A stretch of DNA of 64,000 nt from Xylographa opegraphella (GCA_022813865.1 JALDZX010000007.1:62001-126000), one strand, 5' to 3'; numbered from the stretch's first letter, positions 14,220 to 42,718 are shown. Notes: a model not told the origin generated them from the sequence alone. Translations and numbers: made by a program.

Positions 14220-15257
14220 ATGCTTGGATTACTTTTAATACTGCTTTTTGCTCCTTTCAATGTTCTTACACTTCCATTCTCATTCTCATTTACGGGTGAT
14301 CAATTGGTTTTGCAACCGGTCGATGGCCCGGCCATAGAGAGTGAGGTTTCTACAGGCCCATCCTCTGCAGTCCAGTTGATATATCAATTCAGAGATCATG
14401 TTGCCCTAGAAAATCTTGCCATCCGCTCAAATGGCCACCTCGTTCTGACGGCTTCAAATCAAGCAATCGTGTACGAAATGAATCCTGCTGCTCGCAATGC
14501 ACCCCCGACATCTCTGCCCTCAATACCTGGTGTTACCGGTCTTACAGGTATAGTAGAAACGGCCCCAGACGTCTTCGCTGTTGCCGCTGGAAATTGGTCG
14601 AGTGGAGGATTTCACGGTGAACCAGGTTCCTTTTCCATTTGGTCGGTCGATTTCAATCAACGTCGACCGACGGTGAAGCTTATTGCTGCAATTCCCGAAG
14701 CTGATGCCTTGAACGGACTAACGACATTGGAGTCATCACCCGAGATTATACTTGCCGCCGATTCGTCCGCAGGGGTCATACGACGGCTGAACGTAATCAC
14801 TGGGGAACACAATGTTGCTCTTCAAAATCCTTTCTTCGCACCAACCGGCAAGATTCCCCTGGGGATCAATGGTATTCGTACTTTTGACGGACACCTTTAT
14901 TTCCTCAATTCGGCTCAAGGGGTTTACGGCCGTGTTCCCCTCAACGACGACGGCAGTGCAGCCGGAGAGGTGCAGGTGGTGGCGAGGACCAATTTGCCCG
15001 CGATATATGATGATTTCGACTTGGACTGGGAAGGTAACGCATGGATTGCGACCCATGCCAACATGTTGAATGAGATCACGATACAAGGCAAACAGAGGAA
15101 CATCACAGCAGACAGTCGGAATACGGAAATGACGGAGCCCACCTCGGCACAGTTTGGACGTGGGTCCAAGCAAGCTGAGAAAACAGTATATATGGTATCG
15201 GCAGGAAATACTGCGGTTGGGGGACAGGTCCACGCTATCAACTTGTGTCTAATCTAG
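14220..15257 (+). CDS. Secreted six-bladed beta-propeller protein (SMP-30/gluconolactonase-like; resembles AsR5-type hetero-Diels-Alderase family)
   Basis: Hydrophobic N-terminus MLGLLLILLFAPFNVLT. Motifs ENLAIRSNGHL, LTGIVETAPDVFAV, LNGLTTL, LAADS, GINGI, LYFLNS, DDFDLD and PTSAQFGRG. Confidence 0.75.
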   Translation: MLGLLLILLFAPFNVLTLPFSFSFTGDQLVLQPVDGPAIESEVSTGPSSAVQLIYQFRDHVALENLAIRSNGHLVLTASNQAIVYEMNPAARNAPPTSLPSIPGVTGLTGIVETAPDVFAVAAGNWSSGGFHGEPGSFSIWSVDFNQRRPTVKLIAAIPEADALNGLTTLESSPEIILAADSSAGVIRRLNVITGEHNVALQNPFFAPTGKIPLGINGIRTFDGHLYFLNSAQGVYGRVPLNDDGSAAGEVQVVARTNLPAIYDDFDLDWEGNAWIATHANMLNEITIQGKQRNITADSRNTEMTEPTSAQFGRGSKQAEKTVYMVSAGNTAVGGQVHAINLCLI

Positions 15258-15938
15258 TACAACCACTGGGTCAGTCGATAGAAAGGGCTATGAGTTTATC
15301 GAATGAGCTGGATAGCTAACGATGGGTTCAGGGCAAATTCTTGGACTACAAGGACAACGAGGAGTGAGAAAAGTTAGTGGCCGATATTTGCATTGAGACT
15401 TGTGGATTGCAAAGACCATGACGGATAAAGAGCTTTAGGGTCTGATGTTTTGGCTTGATTCAAATTGGCACGCTATCGTACACAATCGTGGCTTGACATG
15501 GCCAGTGATCACGGGATTAGCACATCGCAAATTAGGGTTCTCAACAACCGAGGAATTTCACTCGCGAAATCATGCTTTGTGGAAGATTAGCATAAAAGTA
15601 CTCAGCTTACCTAAATCTTCGTCAAGGCCCCACGTGCTTTACTCCGTACCAATGACTTTGATATAGGCAAGTCACTCATCGTTCTCGCGCAAGCTTGTTC
15701 TCCCACAGCTCCGAAGATTCGGCCCGTCATGTTCGGTGGATTTTTATCATGCTCTCCATCTCATCAGTTTCTGCCAAAATTCTCCCAAATTTCCCCTCCC
15801 CTCAGATGATATAGGTCCTGCACAGCGAATGCAAGTCAGGAAAGCGAAGCCCGTTGCCCTCTGAAGCGTTTGGCAAATTGGACCTGGCCGTGCGATCAGC
15901 TCGTGCGATTCGAGCAGCCTATCAGCGTTCCCGCCGAA

Positions 15939-17842
15939 ATGGCCGAGCAGCGTCCGCCTAGCGAGCACGAGGAGAAAGCCACAGAGCACGAAGACCGGTC
16001 TGCGGAGCACGCGAAGCCGGAGGCGTCGCTCTCCATCTCGAGCTCAGAGCAGCATGGTGGTGACGAGCAGACCGTCGTCTACCCGACGGGCAAAGCCCTC
16101 GCCCTGATCATGCTAGCCCTGTACCTCGCCGTCTTCCTCGTCGCGCTCGTACGCCCCCCTTCCCCCGACAAAATGGTCGCTCCCCGCTCGAACGCTGACC
16201 GAGTTGGCAAAATAGGACCGCACCATCATCGCCACCGCCATCCCGCGCATCACCGACGACTTCCACTCCCTGGGCGACACCGGGTGGTACGGGAGCGCGT
16301 ACCTGCTCGCCCAGTGCGCCTCCCAGCTGCTCTTCGGCCGCATCTACACCTTCTACTCCCCCAAATGGGTCTTCCTCATCGCCATCGCTTTCTTCGAGCT
16401 CGGCTCCGCCCTCTGCGGGGCGGCGCCCAACTCCGTCGCCTTCATCGTCGGCCGCGCGCTCGCGGGCTTGGGGAATTCCGGTATTTTTTCCGGTGCCATC
16501 GTTATTATGGTGTATATTGTCCCGCTGGCCAAGCGGTCGATCTATCAGGGCCTCATTGGGGCGATTTGTGAGTTTCTGGCCACAAATGGGCTGTGTTGTG
16601 TCTATGGCTGATGATAGCTTGGGAACAGATGGCGTGGCGTCCGTTATGGGCCCATTGCTGGGTGGTGTCTTCACCGACCATGTAACATGGTAATCCCCCC
16701 CCCAAAACCTGGCTTCCCAGCGTCCGCTTCCATCCCACTGACCCGAACCTAGGCGCTGGTGCTTCTACATCAACCTCCCCATCGGCGCCCTAACGGTCGT
16801 GATCATCGTGCTCATCCTCAAACTACCCACCCACACCCGCGCGGCCACGTCGCTGTGGCAGAAATGCGTGCAGCTCGACCCGCTCGGCAACCTCTTCCTG
16901 CTGCCGAGCATCGTCAGCCTGCTGCTCGCGCTCGAATGGGGTGGCACCACCTACGCCTGGCGCAGCGGGCGCATCATCGGCCTCCTCGTCCTGGCCGGCG
17001 TGCTCGCCGCCGCCTTCGTGGGCGTGCAATGCCACCGCCCCGACACGGCGACGGTGCCGCCGCGCATCCTGCGCCAGCGCAGCATCGCTGCGGGCTTCTG
17101 CTTCGCCTTCTGCCTCGGCGCGGCCATGATCGCCATGGTCTTCTACCTGCCCGTGTGGTTCCAGGCCATCACGGCCGTCAGCGCGGTGCAGTCCGGCATC
17201 CGCAACCTGCCGCTGATGCTGTCGCTCGTGCTGGCCAGCATCGGCGCCGGCGCCGCCGTCGCCACCCTCGGCCACTACGCGCCCTTCATGATCCTCGCCG
17301 CCCTGCTCATGAGCCTCGGCGCCGGCCTGCTGACCACCTTCCGCCCGGACACGGGGCCCGCGCGCTGGATCACCTACCAGATCCTCTTCGGCGTCGGCCT
17401 CGGGCTCGGCATGCAGCAGCCCAATCTGGCGGCGCAGACGGTGCTCGCGCGCGCCGACGTCGCCGTCGGGGCCTCGCTCATGTTCTTCGCCCAGGCGCTC
17501 GGCGGCGCCATCTTCGTCTCCGTCGCGCAGACCATCTTCACCAACAGCCTGGTCGCCGGCCTGAGGCACGTGCCGGGGCTGGATCCCGTCAACGTGGCCA
17601 ACACGGGCGCCACCGAGATCCGGAACCTGGTTCCCGCAAACGACCTGGGTGCGGTGCTGGTGGCGTACAATGCGGCCTTGACGGACGCCTTCAAGGTCGC
17701 CTTGGCCGTCGCCTGTTTCTCGGCCGTGGGCGCCTTTGCCATGGAGTGGAGGAGCGTGAAGGTGAAGAAGGACACGAAGAATGGCTGTGGGGTCGCGGAC
17801 GCGCAGGAGGAGAGTGCGGGCGGGATATGTGAAAGCGTGTAA
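15939..17842 (+). CDS. MFS drug/toxin efflux transporter, 14-TM DHA2 (AflT-like), 4 exons
   Basis: [97 protein letters not shown]. Confidence 0.93.
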
Positions 17843-18118
17843 GGGGGGGGGGGGAAACAACACAGCATAGCAGTCACGCCGCATAGCACAATAGATAATT
17901 TGGATTCTGATTTCTGCCTACGCGAGTGACGACTCAGTCGAGCGATTGGCAGCGCCAATGCCAGCGGCTCGTCAACGTATGACTGCATCCTCACAACTGA
18001 CATCAAACGCGAGAACAGCAGCAGCAGCATGAGTCACGATCGAAATTGTCCAGAATCCCAATCTGTTGAAGACCGCACTGCGAATCTATTCGATACATGC
18101 ACACAGCCAGTCCACTAC

Positions 18119-19249
18119 TCACCAGATAGCCACACACCTCAACTCCAAACTCTCCCGCGGCTCCTCCCCTTCCCTGCCCGGCAACTCCACACTGCTATGC
18201 ATCGCTCCGCCCGCCGCCACACTGTCTCCCTCCCGGTCACTGTCCCACAGCCCCAGCACCAAAACCTCGTCGGGTGCCTGCTCGCTCACATAGCACCACC
18301 GATGCGCGTCGCTCCCCTTGCACACGTACGCGTCCATGATATGCATGCCCTTGTTCTCGCCGTCCCCGCTGATCGTCGGCGCCGGGACCTCGATCCGCAC
18401 GTAGTCGTCCTTGGTAAACGAGCGTACGTCACCGAACGCGAGCGGGTCACGCTTCACCGGTTTCAGGGGTCGCCACACCGAGTAGATGGCCCAGCGGGGC
18501 GCGTCGGGCGTGGAGGCGTAGTGGGTGGCGAGGGGCAGACCGGCGGCGTGGAGACGGTCTTCGGCAGCAATGACGGGCGCGCAGGCGGCGGTCAGGGTCG
18601 GGTGGAAGAGCCGGATGTGGGTTCGGGCGCCTGTGGGAGTGAAATCGAGGTGGGTTTTCCCGGCAGGAGGCACGCCGCCGAAGACGGGGGAGAAGCCGAT
18701 GACGTTGGGGAAGTGGAGTTTGAAGATGGTTTGGTCTCGGAGATGAGCCGGCGGCTGGGTGGCGCTGTTGGCAGAGGTTTCCCCAGGAGTTTCCTTGCTT
18801 GGCTGCTCTGGAGGAGGAGCGGGGGCCTCGGCTATGCGCTTGGGGGTACCACGCATGAGGAGGACTTCCGTGATCACTGTTTTGGCACCCGTGATCCGTT
18901 TCAGCATGTCCTCCACTTCTGCGATGTATACCTTTTGAACAATGTCGGGGTCGTGCCAACTTGCGGCAGTGTAGGGACTGAAATGTAAGCTGGAGGGGCT
19001 TTTGACAGCGGTGAATCCATGAGTCAGGAGTTGTGCAGTACCCTCTTTCGCGATTGGTAGCTCGTCCACGGTTGGCAGAGGACGGATGTCGTGAATGGGC
19101 ACCAGACGCTCATCATCGTATTCGGAGACGTCAGGCAAACCGAAAGGCTGTGTAATTGGTTTTGGGTTCCAATTGGCAGTAACATATCGAAGCTTGCCAT
19201 AATTGATGGGAGCAGATGAAGATGTCTCCGTCACGGTAGTAGAGGACAT
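18119..19249 (-). CDS. AsaB/CTB9/GA4-desaturase-like non-heme iron hydroxylase/desaturase
   Basis: HGFTAVK, THLDFT (HxD), YSVWRPLKPVKRDPLA, HRWCYVSEQAPDEVL, distal His in AMHSS, and C-terminal RESLELRC. Confidence 0.8.
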   Translation of the reverse strand: MSSTTVTETSSSAPINYGKLRYVTANWNPKPITQPFGLPDVSEYDDERLVPIHDIRPLPTVDELPIAKEGTAQLLTHGFTAVKSPSSLHFSPYTAASWHDPDIVQKVYIAEVEDMLKRITGAKTVITEVLLMRGTPKRIAEAPAPPPEQPSKETPGETSANSATQPPAHLRDQTIFKLHFPNVIGFSPVFGGVPPAGKTHLDFTPTGARTHIRLFHPTLTAACAPVIAAEDRLHAAGLPLATHYASTPDAPRWAIYSVWRPLKPVKRDPLAFGDVRSFTKDDYVRIEVPAPTISGDGENKGMHIMDAYVCKGSDAHRWCYVSEQAPDEVLVLGLWDSDREGDSVAAGGAMHSSVELPGREGEEPRESLELRCVAIW

Positions 19250-19763
19250 TGCGTTTGCTGGCTGGTAATTGTATGGTTCCAAAGACAAGTTACATGTAAA
19301 GGCACGGACTCAGAATGATATAAAAGTGTCACAATCAGCTGGTACGGAAGGCGAAGATGGGAAGTAGGGACGAAATATGGTGATGATCGTCGCCGAGGCA
19401 TCCCGAGCATTTAAGACGCATTGGATCATGACACTCGTATCATGCATGGGTTATTTCTTCAAGTCTGCCACTGGTCAGGTCAAATTCGCCGAAGGTCAAT
19501 TTAAAGTTCGGAGGTTTTATATCAAATCAGAAGACCTCTTTGATTCGGCCCGAACAAAGCTTGTGCAGTGACTTTTACTGCCAGAAATATACCTGGAACT
19601 CGTCTTACATTTGTAGAGACAGAGGTACCAGAAAACTCATCGTACTCTTGCTGAGTACCGTCGACCTTTTCACTATAGCGTTGATAGATCCGAGATGCGA
19701 CCCTAGGTATTCCAAATCCCAGGACTTTCTCACTAGATTTTCATCCCCACTCCAGTAGTCGGT

Positions 19764-21309
19764 ATGGTTCACGAAGTTTGTTCGATGAACGGCGAAGGCG
19801 CCACGCCGTCTTCCAGAATTGCAGAATTAGCGTCGGTGGTTATGGCCAACACGGCAAAGTTTGACGAGCTGCTTGCACTACACAAGCTCCCTTCTCCTTC
19901 ATTTGAGCCCTCGACAATTGCCGAATTGCCGCTATCGGAAGAGCTGCAGAAAACACAGACTGCTATAGTGGAGGGCATCTCCGAGTTGCAGGCGTTGGTT
20001 CTTGGACCTATAGGCATGTTACGGAATAATGCCTTAATGGTATATTAGGTCTGCCACTTTAGACGAAAGCGGCTTAGACTGATCGGAAACAACAGTACAT
20101 TGACCTCATAAGCCTTCAAGCCATCTGCCAATTTGGGATTGCGCAGTCCTTTTCCGAGGAAGCGTCATATGACCAAATTTCGAAGATATGCGGATTGGAC
20201 GAACCGACTCTGCGTCGAATCATGCGCCATTCCATGACCAATTACATATTCAAAGAACACAACGATATCATTACTCACACAGCCGCCTCCAAGTTACTCA
20301 ACGAGAATCCTTTGATGCGAGCATGGGCCGCTATGATTTGCGAGGAATCATGGCCTGCAGCGGCACGGGTCAGGATCTCATGTGACTTAAGCCACAAAGT
20401 ATCTACTAATTCATCGAGCAGACCGTTGATGCCCTGGATCACTGGCGAGGATCTGAAGAGCCAGAGCACACGGTGACGCGCTTTGGTCCGCAACGCAAGG
20501 ATGTAGTTCGCTGACGGATGTATGGCAGGGATTCGCTCTCGCGAAAAACACCAGTGTTTCATTCTTTGTCGAGCTTGGAAAGGATCCGAGCAGGGCGAAA
20601 CGATTCGCCGAAGCCATGAGTATGTTTGAATCTGGACATGGCTCAGCAATTTCCACCTTACTCAAGCATTTTCCTTGGGGCGCCATTGGTGAAGGGACCA
20701 TCGTCGATGTAGGCGGCTCACACGGAAGCCGTGGGATTGCCATTGCCGAAAGATACCCATCCCTTCATTGCGTCGTTCTAGACCTTCCGGAGGTCGTGGC
20801 TGACGGTCCAGCCAAGATTCCTTATGATCTTCAATCTCGCGTCACATTCGCAGCCCACGATTTCTTCACCGAGCCACCCGAGGTCGCGAAGGCGGCAGAT
20901 GTCTACCTTTTCTGCCGGATTTTCCACAATTGGTCCGACAAGTACTCGGTCAGAATTCTTCGAAGCTTGGTGCCAGCACTGAAACATGGCGCGCGCATCT
21001 TGATTAGCGACATCTGCTTACCAGAGCCTCATGCTCTTCCATATACGCTCGAGAAGAAAATGCGGTCAGTTCCCCATCCATCGCGAACTTTTGCAACTAC
21101 CCCCATCGGCCGCTATATTAATGGTTTGCCGCAGGGCATCTGATTTGGGAATGATGGCTATGCTGAATGCGAAAGAACGGGGACGTCACGAATGGGCCGA
21201 GTTATTTCGACAAGCAGACGAGAGATTTCATTTTCTGGGCATTCGGGAGCCAGCCGGTACTCAGATGGCGTTGATCGAGGCTGTGTGGAATGGACAGAAT
21301 TCACCGTAG
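19764..21309 (+). CDS. SAM-dependent O-methyltransferase (fungal Methyltransf_2, OmtA-like), ~5 exons
   Basis: N-terminal RIAELASVV...LPSPSF dimerisation region, LRRIMRHSM, HTAAS, VDVGGSHG, AHDFF, RIFHNWSD and NAKER. Confidence 0.92.
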
Positions 21310-21830
21310 TGTCCTAGAAGATAACAAGATTCCTTCTCAATCGAGGAGTTTACATGGCCGTCGCTGTTGGAAAGAGAACGTTCAGGTCACACTTTTTCGT
21401 TGGCTGCAGTTGTCTTAAGGTTTGTATGCTAAGTTGGCTACGCTGCTTACGGCCTAGCGCAGCCGGCCGGCCAGATAGGCGAGGTTCTGTCTGCATTAAG
21501 GGCTTACAATATAGGTAATGATTGGACGCTTATGATCGAAGTGGAAGACATGTTCTCAGGCTGTGTGACTTTAGTCGCGTTCGGTGATAGAGAAGGGCTT
21601 GCGTAGGACGATTAAAAGGACAGGAGAGCGTGATCGTTGTGAGCAGGGTCAGCGAGATGAGGCGCGCCTTAGGGAAATGACACGACGCCTACTTCTCTTG
21701 AATGAAATACAGTCTCAAAAGAAGCATCCGCCGACACAGTTCCAATCAATAGACGGCAATTGTGATGACTAGTCTGCTCAAGGCTGCAGCTCGCGGCGCC
21801 AACCCACTGGCGTTTCTGACTCATCCACCT

Positions 21831-23577
21831 TCAGCGACGATCATTAGAGCTTGAGTACGTTGCCTCTAACGCGTTGTAGTGCGAGAACAGCCTGTTGGGG
21901 TCATATTTGTTCTTGAGCCGATTCAGCCGCGGTAGTTTCCGCTCCGTGTACCAACCCAGCTGCCCTTCGTCGCCGTGCCCATAGTTCACGTAGACCTCGA
22001 TGTTGCTTGTGTTCGCACCACTTGTCGGGATAAAGATGCTTCGTGCAGTGTGACCGACTTGAGAGGCAGCAGCAGCTCGAGAGCTGTTTGAAAAGCCGAC
22101 GTCGAGGAGGCTAAAACCCGAAGGCTGTTAATGTTTGTTGGAAGCCAAGCGACAAAAAGAGAATTGAACATACAAGCGTGCGACAGCATTTCGGTACGGA
22201 TATGCGGTACTATCATCAGGGATGGACTCGGTGACTCGAGACGCATACATGTCAATCGCGAGGAATCCAAAGCGGAAGTCAGCATTCTGCGCATAAACAC
22301 TGTCCATGTAGTTCACTGCGGCGATCATAGTGGGCACATCGACCTGATAGAGATTCAGGCCCCAAACGCTATGGAAGTTGCCTTTGATGCAGGCAACAGC
22401 GTCGACGCCAAATTTGGACGAGGTCTCGATGTCTTTCCACGGGATCATGGTAATATTCTGGTCGAAGGGCCCGAGGTCGATCAACGGTTGGATAAGAGCG
22501 ATGCCCTCGCGTAATGCCCCCACATAGATAAAGTTGGCGAAGAGGTAAGTCTGGTGGCATTGTTAGCTGGGAGTAGATGGCAATACGACGATCACTGACG
22601 CCTCCAAACGACTCGTTGTAAGCGATCGCTATGTCGATTGAGAAGGTGTCGGGCATTCTGCCTGTGAAAGACCGCGCGAATTCGTAGAGGGATGCGTTTT
22701 GGGCGGCATAAAACCTAAAGTCTGCACTCATGGCTTGACCGTTGTTTGTAAAGTTGTAGACCTGATACGTCGCCGATGTGACAATGCCGAAGTTGAAGCC
22801 CGCTCCCCGTAAGCCCCACCAGAGGTCGGGGTGGCTGGTCGAGGAGACTTCGATGAGAGCACCAGTACCGGTGACCATTCTGACGGACTGGAGCGCATCG
22901 AGTTGAAGACCATGCAGCCCTCCGTACGGTCCGACACCGCCACCTAGTGTGGCTCCGAGAATACCAACGCAAGAGCACGAGCCAACCTCTACGCAGGAAA
23001 GAGTTTAGAAAATGCTCATAGCCGGATGATGGGAGAGAGAAAAAGATTTGATAGCTGGTCACGTACGAAACTCCTTTCCAGCATCGTACAGTGGACCTGT
23101 AATATTTGCAAAGTGGACAGCGCCACCGACGGTCATGGTGTTGGCATCTTTGTCGATGGACACATTGTTGAAATTGCCGAGGTCGATCTCAATGCCGTTC
23201 TGAACCGTACCCACAGTGACCGAGTAAGCATGGCCGCCACCGGTGCCGAGAAACGATATATTGTGCAAGAAAGCATATTCGATCTGTGCCCGAGGTAATC
23301 AGCGGCGGATGTCTGTATCTTTGCTCGGGCAGTATCAACGCACAATCTTCTGTACATCAGAATCGGTCGTCGGTTTCACGGATATAATGTACGTTGGCGC
23401 ACGAAAGGCGTTCCATCGTTGAGTTGTATCCACCGAGTAATTGGCCTCCGAAGGAAGATAGACCGCAGACGCGGATGAGAGGTGTTTCCGGAAGTATAAT
23501 GCCACCTCTGGTCCAGTTTGAGCAAATACTGGCCCAAGCACACACAGGAGCCCAAAGATTGAGAATGAGAAGTTCAT
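21831..23577 (-). CDS. FAD-linked oxidoreductase, berberine-bridge-enzyme-like, with signal peptide (5 exons)
   Basis: Signal-like MNFSFSIFGLLCVLGPVFAQ. GGGHAYS (His-FAD), GSCSCVG..GATLGGG (Cys-FAD), DLWWGLRGAGFNFGIVTS, and a last exon read manually as YVNYGHGDE...LPRLNRLKNKYDPNRLF. Confidence 0.9.
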
Positions 23578-24857
23578 GGTTTGACCGAGTCGAAGCATGG
23601 CAAGTCAATCCTCGCAGCTTCCCTTGGCTTCATGTACTCGGCGGTGCACACCCTCTTCCGCTGGATCAGCGATTGGATGACGCGTTTCCGCGCACACGGG
23701 GACGAACCAGAGATACAGTTCAGATGCAATGACGAGATCCAGCGTACATGGGAGCGAAGCAGAGATGCCGCTTGGATGCAACGACCGAATCCATGAGCAA
23801 AGCAAGACGAGTTCCGTACAGTTTCGTGCTCCGATTCGAAGGGGAGCAGATTCGGCGTTCGGTGGATTTCAGCGTGTCGATCAGAAAGGACGAGGTCTGT
23901 ATGCATGGTGGTGGGTGGTAGTGGTAAATTGCGGGCAACTCTGTTTCAATGTCACGTTGGGGTCCCTGCAATGATCGACGAACTGCAGCCGATTCTTCAA
24001 AGAGTCAGAGACCTGCATCCAATTCCCCCAACGAGTGCGGTGCAGCGTCGATAGTGCGCGTAGGAGGTGGAGGAGTGGTGGATATAGCTTCCACGCGTTT
24101 CACATACCTAGACACAGCCGGCGGATGACGCGACTCCGTCGGATTCGGTTAGGCCCGCGAGGCGGACTTAGTAAGGTGCCACAAGGAAGGGATACCTTAG
24201 TAATTAGCGTGTAGCCGGATATCGGGACTACTGCGTATAATACTCCACAATACTCCACACCATGCCCGATCGCCCGTCACCGAAGATCGATAAAGGTTTG
24301 GCGCTAGTGGCTGGATCCCGTGCAACAAGCACGGCAACGATCCTCGATCCTTCGTTCCGATTGGAGGCCGAAGACTGCTGGCCTACGATCAAGGCCGCCG
24401 TTCGCGGACTTCCGACGATAATCGTCCGGCGTGTAAGGACGACCGCGACGATTAGCAGGATTGCCAAAGATATCGGTACTGCCCGACTGAGGCACTGTCT
24501 ACCTACCTTACCTTACCTTATCGTGATAAGGTAGGTCAGGTAACTGAGATATCCGCCTATAGTGCAACAGCGCCGGTCCCGAATACCCGGTTCCAGTCGA
24601 TGCACCACGATCCGCCCTCGGCCCCGATGAGGCTAGACGGGTGACGATCGGCAGAGAGGCAGAAGTACGAGCATGCGGGTCGCCGAAGCCAACCGGCGGT
24701 GATGAATCGAGCCACGCCCACGCCCACCCTCAGCCGACATTCACTTGGACTGAAGCGTGCGTTATTTCATCCGTCTGATTCTTCTGCACAGTGCTTTCCC
24801 CTCCACCAACGCTTCCCTAACCCTGACCCATTATCTCAGTATTAACTTCCAGATAGG

Positions 24858-25962
24858 ATGCGAGTTGAGATATGCGGCCGTGAAGTCGGCAGTATTGGGT
24901 ACGGCATGTTGGGTCAGCAGTATCTGAACCGGCCATAGCTCACTCAGCCGCACTAACAGCGTTCTGCAGCACTGACCAAGCCGGGCACGACGGCGACAGA
25001 AGAGCAATGTTTTGCCGCGCTGCGTGCAGCTCTGTCGATGAATTGCAACCTCTGGGATGGAGGCGAGTTCTATGGCTCTCCCGACCTCAACTCGCTTACC
25101 CTGTTGTAAAAGTATTTCACTAGGTATCCCGAGGACGCGCAGAAGGTAGTCCTGAACATCAAAGGCGCTCTGAGGCCTGGCTTGATTCCCGACGGGAGCC
25201 CGTGCTTTGTGCGACAGAGTGTGGAGCGGTGTGTGCAAATGCTGGGCGGCACCGCGAAGATCGATATGTTTGAATTTGGACGCCGAGATCCCAACACTCC
25301 GCTCGAAACTACGCTAGCTACGCTGGACGAGCTGGTGCAAGAGGGAAAAATTGGTGGCGTCGCTCTGTCCGAGGTGAATGCGGAGACGATTCGGGCAGCG
25401 GCCAAGATTACCAACATCGTGGCCGTGGAGATTGAGATCTCTCTTTTCTGTACCGACCCTTTGACCAACGGGATCACCAAGGCGTGCGCCGAGCTGAACA
25501 TCCCAATCATCGCGTGAGTACACCGATAGTCACCCAGGGCATCACTGATACTCTTCCAACAGCTATTGTCCTCTTGGTCGTGGTCTGCTGAGCGGCCACA
25601 TCAAATCCTTTGAGGACCTTCCGGAGAAGGACCTTCGAAGGATGCTTCCTCGCTTTCAGCCGCCAAATTTCGAAAACAACATGAGGCTTGTCCACAAGGT
25701 TGAGACGCTGGCGCGGGAGAAGAATTGCACGGCCGCCCAACTGGCCATTGCCTGGATCGTGAACCTGAGCAAGGGACCAGAGATGCCAACGATCATTCCG
25801 ATCCCAGGAGCCACGACGGTCGACCGCATCATTGAAAACGGGAAAGGCCAGGACGTGGACCTGAACGAGACTGAAATGACGGAGATCAACCAGATACTTG
25901 TAACGTGCGAAGTAACGGGGGATCGATATCACCCGGGGGGCATGAAGTGGATTAACGGCTAG
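24858..25962 (+). pseudogene. Aldo-keto reductase (pyridoxal-reductase-like) with in-frame TAA at 25107-25109
   Basis: Exon 1 MRVEICGREVGSIGYGML, intron 24913-24969, then ...WDGGEFYGSPDLNSLTLL*KYFTRYPEDAQKVVLNIKG...IGGVALSEV...A|YCPLGRG...PIPGATT. Otherwise intact. Confidence 0.8.
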
Positions 25963-27131
25963 AATATCAATGCGCCCTGTAACCGAGCGACTGCTGAAGT
26001 CGACATCATGTCTGCTGCACCGTGCTTCTTGTCCGACATCGATTGGCTCCGCTGTCTTTCAAGTTGACGAGGACACTCCGCACTCGGCTTACCGGAGACG
26101 ATATTGGTCTGCTTCACCGGAGGGGGTGTAGGACATGGGTCCCGACAGAGTGCGTGAAGCACTCGAATTGGAAGGGCCAGATTAGGACGGTAGGGCAGGT
26201 GGCCGTGAAACAATGGAGTGTACCTTAGTGCTCGCCGTTCGTCGTTCGTCGCTAGCTTGCTCCTCATCTCGCATAAGGTACTCACTCGGCTTTGCATGGG
26301 GCGGCCCGATCCGCTTCGTAGAAAGACCGTTAGCCATACGCTATGCCCAAAGTGTCGAGCGAGCATCGCGCTAAACGCCCAGCCCTAAAAGTTACCGTCA
26401 GTCCTCCGTGCGGCGCTAGTACCGTACATACCTTAAGGTAAGACATGCATTCTTTACCGTACCTTAGCCCCAGGTAGTTCTCATGCTCGCACTGGGCTCT
26501 GCTGCACCATTTCAATTCCCAACACGCATCTACTCCCCTCAACACCAAAGATCCAGTAGTAGATCTGCGCTGGAATCTGCCTGTGATGACCATCCCGTTA
26601 TCGGCACACATGGCACTCTCTGACTTCACTCGTCCGGCCACCAGACCCGCATTCGCCCTCCCCCACTTCACTTAGACTTCAGTATCGTCGCTTCTGGCGA
26701 GCCGATCATCGATCAAGACTCACCTCCTACCCTGCCATTGCCGCTTTTCGTGCCAGGGCTTGGGGGCCATATGGCAAAATCGACAATCGGCATGCACATC
26801 AACCCCATCCGGTGGCCCCATCGACCTATCGGCCAAGGGCCGGCTGTGTACGACGATCATCGCGTGCTTGGAGGACCTGGTTCAAGCACTGTGAGCTCAG
26901 AGACCGGCCCATGGCTGTTCCGTACCTTGATACCCATGCCCTCCAGATGCCCACCAGATATGATAATGCTGGAACAGCTGGAAACTCCCATCCGATGTTA
27001 GCTCCCACTCCTCTACCGTTCCGGCCGCCATACCAGCAGCCAGCACCCTGAGTTGAAACTTTGCGCATGCTCGACTCTCCCTCCGGCCCCGCGTTCAACG
27101 TGTTTGCCACCCACCCCCCCCGGACGCAACG

Positions 27132-28754: not shown

Positions 28755-28798
<44 letters not shown>

Positions 28799-32300: not shown

Positions 32301-35300
32301 TGGTCGAGGATAACGGAACAAAAGTATCTGAAAGAGTTCCATAACTGCTTGAAAGAAGATCTTCGGCGGCAATCTCCTTACCAAAATGTGTCTGAAGCTC
32401 CTCTGCAAGTTCAACGGCAGCCAGAGAGTCTACACCCATATCGCCGATGTTAGCATCGCGCCCTACCTCGGCTGGCGAAAGACCCGTATAGGTAGCGATG
32501 ATCTTTCGCAAGCTCATTTCAGCATCTTCATCAACTACCTCCAGTGTGGCAAGCCTGTCGTCGCTTTCGAATGATGTCGCCTGGCTACTGCTGTCCAAGC
32601 CGGGTGGAGTCTCAGTTCCTTCAACTGAAGTCGCCGTGGATGTCCTCTCCGAAGATCTTAACGGTACTCGGGTGGAACTTTCCGTCTTTGTAGCAGTCGT
32701 GTCAGACGGCTTTGCGTTGGCAGAGTCGAGGAACCTCTCAAGCTTCGATATCAAGAGCTTCGTGAACTGTGCCCCGGTAATCGTCATGGCAAGAACCCCT
32801 TCGCGTGTCATGACAAAGACGTCGCCTGCTGCTTGGCTCTCACCCGTGCTGGTGTACTTTGTGTAGACAGTCCATGACTTACAGTTGTGGAAGTCACAGA
32901 TTGGGGACATTGAGACACGGTCAACTCCTGTGGCGACGAAGACCTCTTCGCTGCTTACCAAGGCACTGCTATTGATCAAGAGGCCCACAACTTGAATGAA
33001 GGTGTCTATAGCTATCGTATCACAGTATTGAGTCACTGTGCTCTCCTCCAGCCCGAATAGTGCATCTTCTCTGAGGTCAATATTGGCTAATGCCTCTGCA
33101 TTATCCATCGTGATCGTAGAAATTCCTTGCAAGAAATCCGCATAGTGAACGACTTGGGAAAACAGTCCGTAAGCTCGGTTAGACATTAGCTTTTCGGTAT
33201 TTGGCTTATTCTGCAACTCGTCAATCCTGGAAGCAATAAGTCTTTCGTATGTGCTGAATTCAGGCTGCACCGTCATCATTATTCTTCCTTTAGCATGCGT
33301 TGAGGACCTCGACTTTCCATCGGTTTTAGAGGTGCTTTTGATGACGAAACTCCATGTCTGCGAATCGTTGGATTTTTCAAGTGCCAAGGTAGCTTCTCGA
33401 GCGACGTCAACACCTAAAGCTGCTTGGAAAGACAGATCTGCGAAGCCAAGAGTGCCAGCTTCTATGTGTCCTTGAAGTAATTGTAATCCCATTGCTACGC
33501 ACTCCATATACATTGAAGCTGGGCACAGCGGTCTTTGCCGAACCGCGTGGCCCGACACGATCTTCGTAAAACGCTGTGTTCCCAAGCAGATGTCGAATTC
33601 TTTGGAATTGTCGTTCTTGCACGCAAGTTTTCGAAGATTCACCAGTCTTAATGGCATTACTGGTTCTTGAGGTATTTCTACCGTCGATGTCTTCTCGGAT
33701 ACAAATTGTTCGTGTGCCTCAATAACTCTATCAATGTTCTTCAGCCAATGTCCGGTGGATTGAAATTGATACGGTGGGAGCCAGATCTGCTTGTAATCGT
33801 TCATCCTTGAGGGAAGGAAATTCCAGTATGATACATGAATCCCTTCACGCCAAAGATTTGTTGTCACATTTGACATGACTCTCGAAGGGCTTTGAGAGTC
33901 TGACATCTTTATGGCCTGAAGACAATGATCATCTGGGTTGGCCAGAGCTCGTTTGATCATTGGAATGATCGGTGAGTCCATACCGGCCTCTAGCCAGACA
34001 CAGGAACCAAGACGTTTCTCGATTCTTTGGACAGCATCAGCGAAGTATACCGGTTCACGCGCGTGCTGAGAAGGCCTTTTAGCAGAGAAAAGAGAGATAG
34101 GCTCCGCAGTACAAGTTTCCAGAAACAATTCCGGTTCCGAATAGGTCAGTGATTCTGAAACCTGATCGAGATCGTCGAGGATGCATCTTGTCAAATTTGA
34201 GTGAAATCCATGAGTCACTTCCAGCCGCTGGCATCGGACGCTGGAGAAGACCGGGTCACTGTTCAACAGGCCTTCGGCTTTATCGATCGCCAGTGAGGTT
34301 CCTACTACAACTTGACTTGACGGAGCATTATAGCATGCAACCTCGAGTTCTAGCTCGGCTGTACTCGTGTTGACCTTCTCGACTACCTTTCGCACGGTGT
34401 CGCGACTACCATGAATAACAAGCATGGTTCCTCTCTCAAGGTCCCATTTGGTTGCCATTAACCAAGCCCTAGACGCGACAAGTTTGAGGCCATCCTGTAG
34501 CGAGAGTATCCCTGATACTACCATGGCCGTCAATTCGCCAAAGCTGTGGCCGATTATTGCATCTATATGGAGACCGGCATCAATCCAGCATTTAGCGCAC
34601 GCATATTGCATGGCGAAGGTACCGCATTGCAGCGCAACCACATCATTCAGCGGTTCCGACTCAAACATTGATGGCAAGAAGGAAGCATACCCGAGTTTTG
34701 AAACGATCTTGTCGCATTCATCGATGTAGTTCTTTATATTTGGGTGTGAGTCGTAGAGGATTTTCTCCATGTTCACTGTTTTCTTTGTTTGTCCTCCGAA
34801 AGCTAGAACAACTCGTTTGGAAGTTTGTGGCACCTCAAAAAGGAGCTGAGCCTCATTTGTTAGACTTTCTGCAAGATTCTTGATGTCGAATGTGGAGGTG
34901 ACAAAGATTTGACGATGTACCTTGCGGCGCTTGCTGAGGGTGAAAGCTAAATCGCCTAGCTTGGGCTTTGGGGTTGAATTTTGGAGGTACCGACCCAGAT
35001 TTTGGGCATTTGCATGCAGTCCTTCTTGTGTTGTTGCACTTATAATGATCGGGTATGTTAATTCGCCTTCAAACATTGTTATCTGTTTGGAGATTTCCGT
35101 TTTTCGTGGTGGACCTTCACAACAGATCATGGCACAATTGCTTCCTGCTGCCCCATAACTGTTGACACAAGCAGCCAATAACGGTGCTTCCCAGCGAGCC
35201 TTTTCTGAAGAAATGTTCAACTTGTCCACTCCTAATGCCGGGATCTTCGGATTGAGAGATTTATGGCTGGCCTGGGGTGGAATTCCAGCGTTGTTAATCA

Positions 35301-37611
35301 TGGCGAGAACCTTAAGTAGACTGGCTGCGCCTGCGGCGGTCTCTGTATGACCAATATTGCCTTTGAGAGAGCCTACATTCAGCAGATCCGTTCTATCCTT
35401 TCCCCCAAACACTTCGCGGATGCTAGCAATTTCGAGTGGATCTCCGGCTTGAGTACCTGTCCCATGGGCTTCAACGTAGGACACCTGATCTGGCTTCATA
35501 CCAGCCTGGCGCAAAACCGTTTGATACAATTTTTTCTGGGCTGGAGAGTGTGGAATCGTGATAGAAGAAGAGAGCCCGCCTTGATTAGTTGCTATTCCTG
35601 GGATGACACCCAGAATTTGATCACCATCCGCTACCGCTTGACTGAGAAGCTTCAAAACGACCAATGCACCGCCTTCGGAGCGACAATAGCCATCAGCAGA
35701 CTGATCAAAAGGCTTGCATTGTCCTGTAGGACTTAAAAAGCCGGCTTTCGCCAGATCCAGAAAGTTGTTTATCCCGGTCATTATGTTGACACCCCCAGTC
35801 AGAGCCATGGTACACTCTCCTGTCTGCACAGCCTTACAGGCTCGATTGATAGCGACGAGAGACGATGAGCAAGCCGTATCCAAAACCTCAGAGGGGCCAC
35901 TCCATCCAAAATAATAGCTTATTTTTCCGCACAGAAATGCTCGAATTGTGCCCGTCGAGGTGTACGCCGTTGGTGGATGAGCATTTGTGTTATCTAGATA
36001 TTCGGCGAAACTGGCACCTATAAAGCATCCAACTGTGTCCCCTGATTCGCGCTGATGCGAACCCAGGTAGCCGCTTGATTCCATGGCTTGGTAGGCAAGT
36101 TCGAGGAGTACACGTTGCTGAGGATCCATGTTCAAAGCTTCTTTAGGATTGGTCCGAAAGAATGCGTGGTCGAAATTGTCAACCTGGTCAATGAAGTTGC
36201 CATAAAACTTCCTCTTGTCGGTAAATTTACGGTCTTGAGATGCGCGGAAGCTCCCAGAAATGTCGAATCTGTCTGTTGGGACTTCCACGTGTCGTGAAGT
36301 ACCGCTGGATATGAGATCCCATAGTTCTTCCATGCTGTTCGCTCCAGGGAGGCGACAAGAAGCGCCGACAATGGCGACAGCATCCCTTGGATAAGAATAG
36401 ACATCTTGTGACCTATTTGCCCGGAGTTTGTGCGTGGTGTCCGCTACCAAAGACTGGACATCCACCTTAGTGATCTGGAGCTGGAGTTTGTGGAATGGGG
36501 ACAACGGAATACAGTCGCCAATTCCAAACGTCGCAAAGGTGTGGGTTCGTCGCCCCGACAGGTCCAGGTCCTTCGCCAGCTCCGTAAGAAGGGTGTACCA
36601 TTCGCACCGCGAAGCAAGGATTACACTGACTGCCTCGTGGGTAAGAGATCCTTCTGTGATCAGGTTGCCCGTCTTGTTGGACCTTACGGGTGCTTGCAGA
36701 CTGCTCGCATGAGGAAGCCGGAGGAGCTCCGTCTTGTCGCATAGCTGGCACAGTTCTCGGGCAAGTTCGGCATTCTCGGGGTTGTGCACTTTGCCTCGGA
36801 TGTGCATTTCCTGCACTAGCAGACCCTGCTCTCTTGCGTAACATTGTAGCTTGAGAAGGACCGGTACTGGACCAACGATGCTGATGGTTTTTGGGTCGGT
36901 AACGGCGGATATGTATGACTGCGCATGCGTGTCAGAGTGTCCGCTATAAGGGGGGGATGTTGGAAACGGCGATTTGGACAACCTTACCCCCGGAAATCTC
37001 TGGATTAGCTCGTCTCCTTGACCCACTCGTTTGGTGCGAACGACAATGGTTGTCGCTCCCGGCACCGATTCATCGTCCCCAAGTTCACCGTAGGCTCCGA
37101 TTGCGAGCGCGATTCGCGCGGCTATTGCCGCGTTTTCGGCAACCTCGGACTCGTTCTCCGAACATGCAATTGCCATGGCCGGTAGCAAACCACCACAATA
37201 TCCTTGGATACCGCCCCCTGCTCGGAGCTGCGCTACGCACTGAGAGTGAGATATTCCGTGCAGCTCCAGATACTGGAAATACTGGCACGTCTGAATCACG
37301 ACCAGCAGCGGCAGCGAAATTATGCCCGACATGCGGTTGGCGATCTGGGACGATTTTCCTGTTATGATCCATTCGGATAGACCGTCTATATATCGGAGAC
37401 CTTGGCCCATATCGGCAATGTCCTGACGTTCATTGGCGAGGATGTTCCAGATGTCTTTGAGATTGAGAAGATAGCGCACAAAAGGTTCGAGATGCTTGCT
37501 GCTCTGGAGGAAGAAGTGTAGTTGGGTGAGATAATTCTCTCTAGGAGCTTTACTCTGTGGGCAGAACACCGCTGCTGAGGCCAGCGGGGGGCCATTGAGC
37601 TTGACCGACAT
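29362..37611 (-). CDS. Non-reducing iterative type I PKS: SAT-KS-AT-PT-ACP-ACP-cMT-alpha/beta-hydrolase, ~2619 aa (exons 37611-36988, 36918-30588, 30518-30153, 30012-29930, 29817-29362)
   Basis: SAT GYCGG; KS DTACSSS, EAHGTGT, GHTE; AT GHSFG; PT GHAVRQRPLCPASMY and DTFIQ; ACPs GVDSL and GIDSL; cMT LEVGAGFGG; hydrolase HGGG, GWSSG, HGTEDEIVP, HIHD. Exon sum 7860 nt is in frame. Confidence 0.95.
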
Positions 37612-37789
37612 CGCTGGCGTCAATGCGTTGTTGAAACTCGAAATCGTTGGGATGAGGTATTGCTGGTCGGTCGAGACGGGGCCTTTTGATGGAGCCTCGA
37701 GAAGACATGTGCTCTTTGGATTGTTTCTTAGCAAACGCTCCAACTCCCATGTGTCTTCCGGAGCGTTGATCCAACGCCATGACCATTGA

Positions 37790-37970
37790 CACCGATTTCG
37801 GAAGCCCGTTGAAACTAGGCCGCCTGTTTAGGGTCGAATTCGGTTTAATTGAAGTCGTCTACAGAACCTTCGGATTAGGAGGTTTGTTCGGTCTTAAGTT
37901 CGGTGTGCAAGAACACGATACATCGCAAATTCGCATTCGGCAGGTTTAGCGCATAATCTTTCGGAGCTTG
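37790..37970. promoter_or_regulatory. Divergent PKS/P450 promoter with seven same-orientation TTCGG sites (candidate Zn2Cys6 half-sites)
   Basis: TTCGG at 37797, 37839, 37869, 37887, 37899, 37936 and 37960. Confidence 0.6.
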
Positions 37971-38249
37971 GCTCAAGTCTGAATTGTCTTGTCCTGGTAT
38001 GGACCGTCACTTGCAATGCTGACGACGTCCGTAATTTTGTATTCTGGCTCATGAGAAGGTCTTGCAACATCTCGAGGCATCCTTTGCTGAGCTGACCAAT
38101 ATCTGAGGTTGAATTGTGCTTGCGATGCAGGCACCTCTGCAAATTAGGTGGTCTTCCTTAACTCTTCATCAACTAAGGCACTTCTTTGATTCATACTCCG
38201 CAGCATGCACTGGACGGTTTTTCATCCTTAACATCAGGTTCTGGAGACT

Positions 38250-39997
38250 ATGTTGACACGAGGCAGAATCGATACGATGCTGACACTCTCCGACATGCCC
38301 TCTCTGTTGACTTTTTCAGGAACTCACATTATGGGCACCGTCGGTGCAATATTTATCGTTGTGGGTATCTAAAGGATGGGGCGATCATTACTTTACAAAG
38401 CTAAAGTGAATCTCTAGTACTTTGTCGTATCCTCTATCTATAATATCTACCTCCACCCGCTGTCCAAATACCCCGGACCAAATTCAACGGCAATATCCCG
38501 CTTGCCTCTCATCTACTCTACGATAACGGGAAACACATGGCGCTTTACAGAAAAACTTCATGCGCGTTACGGATCGATCGTACGCATCGCTCCAGACGAG
38601 ATCTCCACAACCTCCTCTGGCGCCTGGAAGGATATATACACAACCAAACCACTCTTTCCAAAGGACCCATTTAGCCAAACGCCACCTATGAACGGAGCCG
38701 AATCGCTTTTTACCGCTGCAGGCGAAACCCACCACCGGATTCGCAAGAATTTCATCAACGCCTTTTCTGACAGAGCATTGAAAGATCAATCCCCTATAAT
38801 AGAGTCTTATGCCAACCTCTTGATGACGAGGCTTCGTAGAGAAATCATCAAGAGCCCGAATGCAGATGTGGACATGGCGAAGTTTTATGGTTATGCAACT
38901 CTTGATATCATCGCAGATCTGACGTTTGGGGAATCTTTTTATGGCTTGGAGGGCGATAACGAACACTCGTGGATTTTGGGTTTCTTCCTCGGCGCAAAGT
39001 TTGGTTCAGTGAGAAATAGTCTGAGCCGCTACCATCCTATCGACAAGATTTTTGGATGGATATTTCTTCGGTTAACGGCGAAAAATAGAGCTCGCAGTTG
39101 GCGGGTTGCGACGGACAAAATCTCGCGTCGATTGGAGATGGGGGACCTGGGCACTTCGAGATCGGATTTCATTACGCCTATCGTTGGTAGGTTGGACGAG
39201 ACGCAGCAGAAGGGTATCACAAGGAAAGAGCTCAACACCAACGGGCTTGCCGTCGTCATTGCTGGGTGTCAGTTAACGACTGTGGCATTAGCCACAGCCA
39301 CTTATCTGTTGATGCGTTACCCCGAGACTCTAAAGCAGCTCACCGAAGAGATCCGTGGGAGCTTTAATTTAGAGTCCGATATTACCATTCCTTCTACTAT
39401 AAATTTACCATACCTTGCAGCTGTTATTAACGAGACACTACGCATTCATCACCCCACGCCTATTAATCTGCCGAGAGTCATGCCTCCAGAAGGCCAGATG
39501 ATTGATGGCCACTGGATTTCCGGAGGGGTAATTATAATTTCACTTTTGGGTCGACTGTTTGGTTTTGTTCGTATGAGCTTAATAGCCGCTGACCTGCGTT
39601 CAGAACATCATCGGCGTAAACCTCCAGAATATTCAGAACGATCCCGCCAACTGGGTTGAGCCTCGAGTATTCCATCCTGAAAGATTCCTGCCCACTTCCG
39701 ATTCGAGATACGAAAAGCGTTTCGACAAAGACGATAAGCAGGCTTTCCAGCCGTTTTCAGTGGGTGGGCGAAATTGTATGGGCGGAAAGTAAGTCTTTCT
39801 TACAATATCTTGTACTCTACGGTCTAACTTCGAATAACAGGGTCTTCCTGGCTGAGGCACGAATAATTCTCGCAAAGATGGTCTGGAACTTTGATTTCGA
39901 GATGGTCGATACGAATGATTGGAATTGGATGGATCAGAAGGCCTACCTCGTCTTTGAGCCGAAGGCCCTGATGGTGCGGCTGAAGGAGAAGGCTTAG
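38250..39997 (+). CDS. Cytochrome P450, CYP65-like (4 exons), atypical I-helix
   Basis: LHPLSKYPGP, RIAPDEIS, TLDIIADLTFGESF, IAGCQLTT, ETLR, HPERF, and heme motif FSVGGRNCMG (in exon 39604-39788). Start could be 38250 or 38277. Confidence 0.9.
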
Positions 39998-40786: not shown

Positions 40787-40961
40787 TCTGAGCGATCAAA
40801 TAATATAATACGATTGGAGCACATACCGCTCCGGTCATGTCGCTGTATTCAGCAGTGTTTCCCTGTTCTGTTCACTTCTTCTTTCTACAGGTTTTCGAGT
40901 TTGTGAAAGGGCGAAGATTCGCTGTGCGTTCCGACTTGGAGCGACTGAACCAAGTAACGCC

Positions 40962-42718
40962 ATGCATGTGCTCGATTTGATTATTACCTGGCCTTTGAGT
41001 ACCATAGCTGCCTCCTTCACCCTCTATGTCGTCCTCCTCTATGCCTACCGCCTGACTCTGCATCCGCTTGCCAAGTTTCCCGGCCCCCGCCTCGCAGCAG
41101 TGACCTTCTGGTGTGAGTTCTACCATGACTACTTCCGTGGCGGCCAATACCTCTTTCGTATCCGCGACATGCACGCCAAGTACGGTCACATCGTGCGCAT
41201 CTCCCCCGATGAACTACACATTGATGACCCTTCCTTTCTTCCCGAGTTGATGCCCGCCGGCGGACGTCGCAGGGACAAGTACAGGCGCATGATCCAGGTA
41301 TTCGGCTTCTCGCAGGCCGCAGGTGCCACCGCGGATCATGATTTGCATCGGACACGGCGAGCGGCTATGTCAAAGATGTTTTCCAAAGAATCCGTGCGGC
41401 GGCTGGAGCCGATCATGAGGACGAACTTCAATAAGCTCTTGGTTCGACTGAAGGAGTTCCAGGATAATGGGAGAGAGATCAGTCTGCTTCCCATGTTTGG
41501 GGCTTTCACCAATGATGTGATTTCCGAGTATGCGTATGGCTTCAGTCTGAATTGGGTGCAAGCACCGCAATTTAATAAGGTTTTTTTTGAAATGGTATGT
41601 ACCGGACAATGCGTATGAAAATCGACGACTGAACAGCTTGCAGATTGATGGTTTTCATGATCTTGGGCCTTTTGCGGTGCAGTTCAAATGGTTTATGCCA
41701 CTCTTCGCTAGTTTGCCTAGGTGGTTAATATTGAAGATTAATCCTGGTTTTGAGACTTTCATTAAGTTCAAATTGGTAATGATAACGACATGACCACACC
41801 GGCAACCAAGCTAAATTCAGTATAGCAACTGTTAGGCAACATTGATAGAGTTGCGAAGTCTCATGGCGAAGGAAAAGACAGCAAAACGGTATTCGACGAG
41901 ATCTTTGACAGCAAACTATCCGAAGAGGATAAGAAACCACTTCGGCTTCTGCAAGAGGCTCAAAACTTCTCGATTGCAGGCACCGAAACAACATCTTGGA
42001 TTTTAAGTGTGCGTCGTGCGGGAAGAGAAGTCTCTTGGTTTCGCAAAGCTGACCTATGGCCCAGATTATGACCGTCCACCTTCTTTCCACTCCACAGGTC
42101 CTTGCTAAGCTGAGAGCCGAGCTCACAGCGGCTCTCCCCGACGTCTCTGCGCCCCTCGTGATCAAAGACATCGAACAGTTGCCTTATCTCACCGCGGTCA
42201 TTACGGAGGGCCTCCGCCTCGCCATTGGCACCAGCCAACGGCAGACGCGCATCAGCCCCCACGAAGTAATGACGTTCAACGACGGCAAAAAGAAGTGGCA
42301 CATTCCTCCCGGCGTGCGTCTTCCTCATTCCGCTCTCGCTCCATGCACACTTTCTAACTGATGATTCTAGACTCCCGTGGGCATGGCCGCGCCCCTCATT
42401 CACCTCAATCCTGACATCTTCGCTGACCCTCTCACGTTCCGGCCCGAACGCTTTATCGAGTACCCCCTATTGAAACGGTATCTGATGACCTTTTCCCAGG
42501 GGTCTCGGCAGTGTCTTGGGATGCAGCTCGCCTACACAGAGATTTACCTGCTGCTCTCGGAGATCTGGCGCCGCTTCGGCAGCAAGGAGGATCATGGGGA
42601 GGACGGTTGGTGGGAGCTGTGGGAGACGGACCGCAGCGACACGGATATGGCCTGTGATCGTTTCGTGCCGTATCCAAAGGCCGACAGCAAGGGGATCCGC
42701 ATCAAGGTGCGGAAATAA
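40962..42718 (+). CDS. Cytochrome P450, trichodiene-oxygenase-like (CYP58/CYP682-type clan), 5 exons
   Basis: LHPLAKFPGPRLAA, EFYHD, RISPDELH, IAGTETT, EGLR, RPERF and FSQGSRQCLG. Confidence 0.92.

Follow-up and report, generated by a model that had tools for sequence, protein, structure and literature searches.

A probable type IV PKS1 ('dsd') depsidone gene cluster in the lichen fungus Xylographa opegraphella, with a nonsense codon in dsd5 and a beta-propeller gene at its edge

We describe a region of ten genes (14220-42718) in a 64,000-nucleotide (nt) stretch of DNA from Xylographa opegraphella (GCA_022813865.1 JALDZX010000007.1:62001-126000; the whole stretch is referred to here as the window). 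With a probability that we put at roughly 0.8, this locus is the X. opegraphella type IV member of the PKS1 ('dsd') family of biosynthetic gene clusters (BGCs), directing the formation of stictic acid and, as a by-product, of norstictic acid. Stictic and norstictic acids are bioactive depsidones and classic taxonomic markers of lichens, and we know of no genes for their synthesis identified before 2025. The family was set out by Kim et al. (2025, New Phytol, PMC13062703), whose main text defines a lichen 'PKS1 BGC' of eleven genes, dsd1-dsd11, encoding a polyketide synthase (PKS), three cytochromes P450 (P450s), a Zn2Cys6 protein and members of PF00248, PF01565, PF00891, NF041278, PF07690 and PF00083, with dsd7-dsd9 defined from Xylographa carneopallida. 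A preliminary description of the window had not recognised its gene combination as a characterised one. This point needs correcting, as the family has been described in print, heterologous expression has proven three of its enzymes, and X. opegraphella stands in row 72 among the 100 genomes of the paper's genome table (PMC13062703); the kind of cluster is not new.

Gene models were built by manual splicing from six-frame translations, with canonical GT..AG introns of 49-140 nt, and family assignments came from Pfam and NCBIfam profile searches of translated open reading frames (ORFs). For 13000-44000, where 86 ORFs reach 100 aa, 56 were scanned, and most of the others are overlapping frames; in the flanks of the window, the scan took in every stop-to-stop ORF with a length of 95 aa or more, 97 in total. 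The ten genes named in the preliminary description are all present, within exactly the borders it gave, from the ATG of a beta-propeller gene at 14220 to the stop codon of a second P450 gene at 42718, and nine of the ten models run without interruption from start to stop codon, the exception being the aldo-keto reductase (AKR). Family by family, the set matches dsd1-dsd9: a PF00109 PKS, two PF00067 proteins, PF00172, PF00248, PF01565, PF00891, NF041278 and PF07690. Pfam scans of the window ORFs found exactly two P450 genes in the 64 kb, and neither a third P450 nor a PF00083 sugar transporter, the families of dsd10 and dsd11. The genes of the PKS and the first P450 point in opposite directions, as had been noted beforehand, and this is the arrangement published for dsd1 and dsd3, which are transcribed away from each other from a promoter held in common (PMC13062703). 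Table 2 of the same paper files type IV (dsd2, dsd3, dsd7), with '(nor)stictic acid', under 'Xylographa and Usnea spp.', and in a thin-layer chromatography (TLC) record for X. opegraphella, stictic acid is the major compound and norstictic acid a trace. The chemistry proposed in the preliminary description, a beta-orcinol depsidone with aldehyde or lactol groups and an O-methyl (norstictic/stictic type), is the one assigned to Xylographa type IV in that paper. Compared with the published type IV cluster, the window has the same families in the same genus, the divergent promoter and neither a third P450 nor a sugar transporter, and it differs in the nonsense codon in dsd5 and the additional propeller gene at its edge.

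The PKS gene (dsd1, pks1-type; 29362-37611, minus strand) comprises five exons and four introns and encodes an intact non-reducing PKS (NR-PKS) of 2619 aa with the domain order SAT-KS-AT-PT-ACP-ACP-CMeT-hydrolase in Pfam, where a PS-DH match occupies the PT position and is accompanied by two PP-binding stretches, HTH_51 plus a methyltransferase domain, and a terminal hydrolase recognised as a split Abhydrolase_3/BD-FAE match. Its KS-AT part is 100% identical to MMC26_001471, a hypothetical protein of X. opegraphella, and 90%, 86% and 82% identical to the relatives in X. pallens and X. soralifera and to a Letharia lupina PKS, respectively. The whole model is colinear from end to end with the proteins of X. 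pallens (86.7% identity) and X. soralifera (84.2%), and full-length identity is 78% to the L. lupina PKS and 62% to a PKS of Icmadophila ericetorum; both Letharia and Icmadophila are listed with PKS1 BGCs (PMC13062703). The intron count of our model, the count alone being compared, equals the four introns that PKS1 and its paralogue PKS23 have in common at conserved positions, as stated in the text of Kim et al. (2021, mBio, PMC8262933). Judging from its position, the surrounding gene content and the 2025 text, the PKS would fall in PKS1 and not in PKS23. A public protein model of the PKS (P0002, 2607 aa) treats the first intron (36919-36987; 69 nt, in frame) as exon sequence and omits an 83-nt exon (29930-30012) that the present model includes.

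A promoter of 719 bp (37612-38330) separates the ATG of the PKS (37611, minus strand) from that of the first P450 gene (38331-39997, plus strand). The latter has four exons and encodes an intact protein of 493 aa with p450 Pfam matches and, in the open spliced model, the heme loop FSVGGRNCMG; we infer that it is the ether-forming P450 of the depsidone that also hydroxylates C-8, the label dsd3 being taken from position only. The second P450 gene (40962-42718, plus strand; five exons, 514 aa, intact, with p450 matches on four exon pieces) is presumably dsd2 by elimination, since Table 2 of Kim et al. (2025) gives dsd2, dsd3 and dsd7 for Xylographa.

In the pathway that we propose, the PKS would join two 3-methylorsellinate units into the depside 4-O-demethylbarbatic acid, the product obtained by heterologous expression of pks1 orthologues (PMC13062703). 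The divergent P450 would then close the diaryl ether to form the depsidone and hydroxylate the C-8 methyl, both of which were shown for orthologues in assays of the Parmelia Dsd3 (PMC13062703). Next, the FAD-linked oxidase (dsd6) would convert the C-8 alcohol into the aldehyde of virensic acid, as orthologous Dsd3 and Dsd6 do together (PMC13062703). For the later steps, the second P450 (dsd2) would oxidise the B-ring methyl beside the carboxyl, and closure of a lactol would lead to norstictic acid. Salazinic and (nor)stictic acids presumably both carry such a B-ring lactol. We assign the step in this way because dsd2 tracks the lactol-bearing cluster types: Table 2 of Kim et al. (PMC13062703) lists it for the three types III, IV and V, which make salazinic and (nor)stictic acids, and shows it as absent from type II ((fumar)protocetraric acid). 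The PF00891 methyltransferase (dsd7) may then methylate the 4-OH to yield stictic acid, the dsd9 transporter may export the product, and the Zn2Cys6 protein (dsd4) may regulate the cluster.

Further genes of the cluster lie to the left of the PKS. The FAD-linked oxidase of the BBE-like kind (dsd6-type; 21831-23577, minus strand; five exons) is an intact protein of 498 aa with a hydrophobic N-terminus, FAD_binding_4 (PF01565) and the BBE domain PF08031 in Pfam. The O-methyltransferase gene (dsd7-type, PF00891; 19764-21309, plus strand) has five exons, the last two at 20529-21064 and 21135-21309, separated by GT..AG introns of 53-70 nt, and its intact product of 436 aa gives a Methyltransf_2 match with an E value of 1.3e-22. 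A single exon on the minus strand (18119-19249) encodes the intact dsd8-type protein of 376 aa, an oxidoreductase of the CmcJ/NvfI (AsaB/'GA4 desaturase') family that had been described as an AsaB-type dioxygenase; it scores 132 bits against NF041278 in NCBIfam, where the cut-off is 80, and is 77% identical to MMC34_002565 of X. carneopallida. The dsd9-type efflux transporter, a member of the major facilitator superfamily (MFS) of the DHA2 kind (15939-17842, plus strand; four exons, 570 aa, intact), has MFS_1 matches in Pfam and a match to TIGR00711 (efflux_EmrB-like) in NCBIfam. The gene for the Zn2Cys6 transcription factor (dsd4-type; 27132-29015, plus strand) is a single exon of 626 aa counted from the first ATG of the ORF; its Zn_clus score, 19.7, lies below the cut-off of 21, and the motif CX2CX6CX9CX2CX6C is present.

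Wider comparison drew on 22 loci from metagenomes, retrieved by searching with an exon of dsd6; 20 of them hold dsd6 orthologues of 56-81% identity. In nine of the 22, the AKR and the BBE oxidase come after the 3' part of the PKS (71-77% identity), in the order and orientation of the window, with a Zn2Cys6 gene between PKS and AKR in four of these nine; counterparts of dsd4 with 45-47% identity stand beside the AKR in five loci. Two loci, L019 (9423-13419) and L020, have a more distant BBE-like oxidase (56%) beside an O-methyltransferase that shares only 37% identity with dsd7; they have neither an AKR nor a PKS within reach and probably represent a different cluster family. As for the surroundings of the cluster, 12 ORFs from the flanks of the window were compared with the 22 loci, and none had a match there.

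Several observations weigh against the type IV assignment. The genes dsd7, dsd8 and dsd9 occur in none of the 22 metagenome loci; those loci therefore represent other cluster types, and the type IV module is confirmed only via protein matches and locus tags. The filing under type IV is known at the level of the genus, and the specimen behind the TLC record differs from the sequenced one. The placement of the PKS in PKS1 as against PKS23, like the labels dsd3 and dsd2, derives from position, content and published text rather than from a tree. The late pathway is called hypothetical by Kim et al. themselves, who obtained no end product on adding dsd2 and dsd5 (PMC13062703). Finally, dsd5 is broken in the window.

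This last point, which the preliminary description had already raised, concerns the AKR gene (dsd5-type, PF00248; 24858-25962, plus strand), modelled as three exons and 332 codons with Aldo_ket_red matches on three pieces. An in-frame TAA (25107-25109) replaces codon 65 of 332, in the context SLTLL*KYF, and beyond it the frame stays open, for which reason we regard the change as recent. Codon 65 is a sense codon in all 15 metagenome loci with an AKR orthologue (query cover 99-100%), reading K in 11 and R in 4. A separately built contig of a public run reproduces 24800-26000 without any difference at a mean word depth of 163, which rules out an assembler slip as the source of the TAA; this run may be the source sample and so does not stand for an independent individual, and two further runs of the same study covered the AKR too poorly to be of use, with one 53-base piece in X2 and none in X3. 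The conserved WD and EFYG motifs, which we take to be the usual AKR catalytic Asp and Tyr, sit upstream of the stop codon, so that a product restarted downstream would be without them. The AKR is probably not needed for stictic acid.

How far these observations favour another product or another fate of the locus can be judged from the same evidence. The best of the alternatives, though an unlikely one, is that the main product is a different beta-orcinol depsidone (norstictic, salazinic or psoromic acid, or a satellite of the constictic/menegazziaic type), with dsd8 and the propeller protein carrying out an additional oxidation or rearrangement. The hypothetical status of the late steps, the fact that neither dsd8 nor the propeller has a step in the scheme, and the paper's own grouping as '(nor)stictic acid' all leave room for it; against this, stictic acid is the major compound in the TLC record of the species, the methyltransferase that would supply the 4-O-methyl is intact, and the scanned ORFs of the window include no third P450, the kind of gene (dsd10) that the authors thought necessary for salazinic acid. 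Still less probable, in our estimate, is that in this strain the cluster is silent or undergoing decay, with the dsd5 nonsense codon as the first sign of pseudogenisation and depsidones coming from elsewhere or being absent from the sequenced individual. A stop codon in place of a residue that is K or R in 15 of 15 related loci, seen again in the separate contig, is what such decay would look like, and re-initiation beyond WD and EFYG would presumably give a dead enzyme; yet the nine other genes all have canonical models without interruption, dsd5 is open apart from the TAA, as befits a recent change, and stictic acid is recorded for the species.

The type IV assignment also has to be set against the atranorin cluster, of which the preliminary description had taken the locus to be an expanded form. 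In the text of Kim et al. (2021, PMC8262933) the atranorin core is atr1-atr4, Atr3 is a Trt5-like carboxyl methylase of 346 aa (Pfam08241), and the PKS1 family is considered older than its paralogue PKS23. The atranorin PKS23 is a paralogous NR-PKS of equal domain order whose first product is likewise 4-O-demethylbarbatic acid (PMC13062703), and its neighbours include a P450 (Atr2) related to Dsd3 and an MFS transporter. Atr2, unlike Dsd3, oxidises a methyl only and forms no ether; the atranorin cluster is without a second P450, FAD oxidase, AKR, CmcJ/NvfI gene or cluster transcription factor; and atranorin is a cortical depside, whereas the product expected from the window is a medullary depsidone. 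Membership in the atranorin BGC was rejected, as the window has no Atr3-type methyltransferase and does have six further genes of the PKS1 set; it most likely belongs rather to the paralogous PKS1 family, with an O-methyltransferase of PF00891 and not an Atr3-like PF08241 protein. We therefore all but discard the reading of the locus as an atranorin-type (PKS23, atr1-atr4) depside cluster, a meroterpenoid cluster of the dimethylorsellinate (DMOA) type or a methylphloracetophenone (usnic) cluster: the domain order is that of Atr1, and the locus likewise contains P450, methyltransferase and MFS genes, but the only free methyltransferase is the 436-aa PF00891 protein, the extra P450, transcription factor, AKR and FAD oxidase make up the PKS1-family set, and the terminal domain of the PKS is of the Abhydrolase_3 type, as in the listed PKS relatives. 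A DMOA-type cluster of the AusA/Trt4 kind was rejected because the scanned window ORFs contain no prenyltransferase or terpene cyclase; in agreement with the preliminary description, Pfam scans of the 56 cluster and 97 flank ORFs found no domains of these two kinds and none of a nonribosomal peptide synthetase (NRPS) or a highly reducing PKS (HR-PKS).

Outside lichens, P450s that close the diaryl ether of a depside include MollD of the mollicellins, DepG and pRosK, here compared by their description in the text of Kim et al. (PMC13062703); MollD, like Dsd3, also hydroxylates (PMC13062703). The depsides of these pathways are heterodimers, and in some of the pathways an HR-PKS partner, a decarboxylase or a prenyltransferase is required; the window has none of the three.

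The remaining gene lies at the left edge of the cluster, where a single exon (14220-15257, plus strand) encodes a secreted-looking protein of 345 aa with a hydrophobic N-terminus. Searches of Pfam and NCBIfam gave no match to it. Its fold, a beta-propeller according to the preliminary description, is borne out by an AlphaFold2 model (39 aligned sequences; mean pLDDT 86.3; all-beta) and by Foldseek, in which the best matches of the model are PycR1 and EupfF, with template modelling (TM) scores of 0.75-0.76 and 24% identity, followed by beta-propeller lactonases of the SMP-30/gluconolactonase (SGL) type. Among PDB sequences the protein likewise matched EupfF (E 4e-17), together with PycR1 and a putative Nostoc lactonase. 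In the alignment, E64, N165, N217 and D264 are invariant, and their spacing may resemble that of the metal-binding residues of SMP-30-type lactonases. The gene is not among the eleven dsd genes of the main text of Kim et al. (2025), in which the word 'propeller' has no occurrence (PMC13062703), and we found no literature tying a depsidone to a gluconolactonase, the papers that mention both depsidones and propellers being unrelated.

Evidence that this gene belongs with the cluster comes mainly from other genomes. The propeller protein is 77% identical to one of X. carneopallida, and in the other named genomes where orthologues of both genes are listed, three out of three, the dsd8 orthologue and the close orthologue of the propeller are two locus tags apart: MMC34_002567 and MMC34_002565 in X. 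carneopallida, ABVK25_011538 and ABVK25_011540 in Lepraria finkii, and N7G274_001433 and N7G274_001431 in Stereocaulon virgatum. If sequential tags mean adjacency, as we suppose, the gap of two fits one gene in between, like the MFS gene in the window. Matching longest-contig values for PKS and propeller (31717, 427883 and 74751) and for PKS and dsd8 (58270 and 50074) suggest that these genes lie on shared contigs. A more distant propeller (P0203, 45% identity) and a CmcJ/NvfI protein (P0284, 48%) also have one longest-contig value, 9867, a hint that this pair travels together outside the stictic-type cluster too. Among the 14 metagenome loci with more than 2 kb downstream of dsd6, a propeller gene 49% identical to that of the window directly follows dsd6 in two, L001 and L002. 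Against linkage stand the other 12 of these loci, which have no propeller gene, and two X. soralifera homologues (63% and 54%) whose tags are far from that of the PKS. The L001 homologue (11888-12702) was matched as two overlapping pieces and so may contain a frameshift; its counterpart in L002, a near-identical locus, is a single open ORF of 384 aa with a sub-threshold SGL match.

A further point against linkage is that no common promoter motif tying the propeller gene to the cluster regulator was found, the candidates being rejected as evidence. The 7-mers found in five of seven promoters were equally frequent in shuffled promoters, CACCGAA occurred 14 times where 8.2 were expected, and no gapped motif of the CGG-N-CCG type was present in at least six promoters. 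The 9-mer CACCGAACG has five exact copies, all at 13850-23864 in the cluster's left half, with two ahead of the propeller gene, one in dsd8, one between the 3' ends of the O-methyltransferase and BBE oxidase genes, and one in the promoter between the BBE oxidase and the AKR. It is not significant over all 9-mers, among which, by our own estimate of chance, some 9-mer with five copies is expected, and with one mismatch allowed it has 15 copies against 14.2 expected.

What the propeller protein might do is suggested by its structural relatives. It resembles PycR1 (7x2n) and EupfF (7x36) in its predicted six-bladed fold, in sequence and in being encoded within a polyketide cluster. It differs from them in that identity is only 24%, in that the window has neither tropolone genes nor a terpene (humulene) synthase, and in that stictic acid requires no cycloaddition. 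Like the substrate of EupfF, the product of Dsd3 has a benzylic alcohol beside a phenol. EupfF converts such an alcohol, next to a phenol-type oxygen, into an o-quinone methide ahead of a cycloaddition, according to the description in PMC7814671. We regard the propeller gene as a candidate additional member of the cluster, and a lyase-like or a lactonase-like tailoring step as candidate roles for its predicted fold. A bolder and so far doubtful proposal, tentative in all its parts, is that propeller, dsd8 and dsd9 form a conserved three-gene module of stictic-type dsd clusters, omitted from the eleven-gene scheme, that tailors the benzylic alcohol, aldehyde or lactol of the depsidone, and that dsd5 is dispensable for stictic acid.

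The borders of the cluster are set by its neighbours: on both flanks, the ORFs with Pfam matches belong to housekeeping genes. On the left are Sec62 (10866-11537), a thiamin pyrophosphokinase and a DAO oxidoreductase, and on the right Vps52 (47166-48822), eIF5A, Rrn7, ubiquitin, Yip1, RabGAP and CPSF1. Two long ORFs on the plus strand gave no Pfam match, one of 839 aa (6952-9468) and one of 489 aa (44147-45613), the latter covered by the strongest negative GC skew of the window (-0.21 at 44-46 kb). Within the cluster, GC content at third codon positions (GC3) is uneven, reaching 0.94 in the last exon of the MFS gene (16754-17842), 0.78 in the transcription factor gene (27132-29012), 0.77 in the last PKS exon (29362-29817) and 0.70 in dsd8 (18119-19249), compared with 0.51 in the body of the PKS and 0.48-0.62 in the housekeeping genes of the flanks. 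The two GC-rich blocks span convergent gene ends, those of the MFS gene and dsd8 and those of the transcription factor gene and the PKS, a pattern that may reflect GC-biased conversion at these places and not a foreign origin.

The window adds no new kind of cluster; it provides a clean, fully modelled type IV example with exact borders against housekeeping genes, and with it two modest additions, a natural knockout of dsd5 and a conserved propeller gene beside dsd8 and dsd9. Should stictic acid have been made by the thallus that was sequenced, its synthesis can do without dsd5, which would be useful to know given that the authors' experiments with dsd5 gave no end product. Both additions are testable leads for the unsolved late steps of depsidone biosynthesis: dsd5 is lost naturally in a species recorded with stictic acid, and the conserved propeller beside dsd8 and dsd9 is a candidate for the enzyme missing from these steps.

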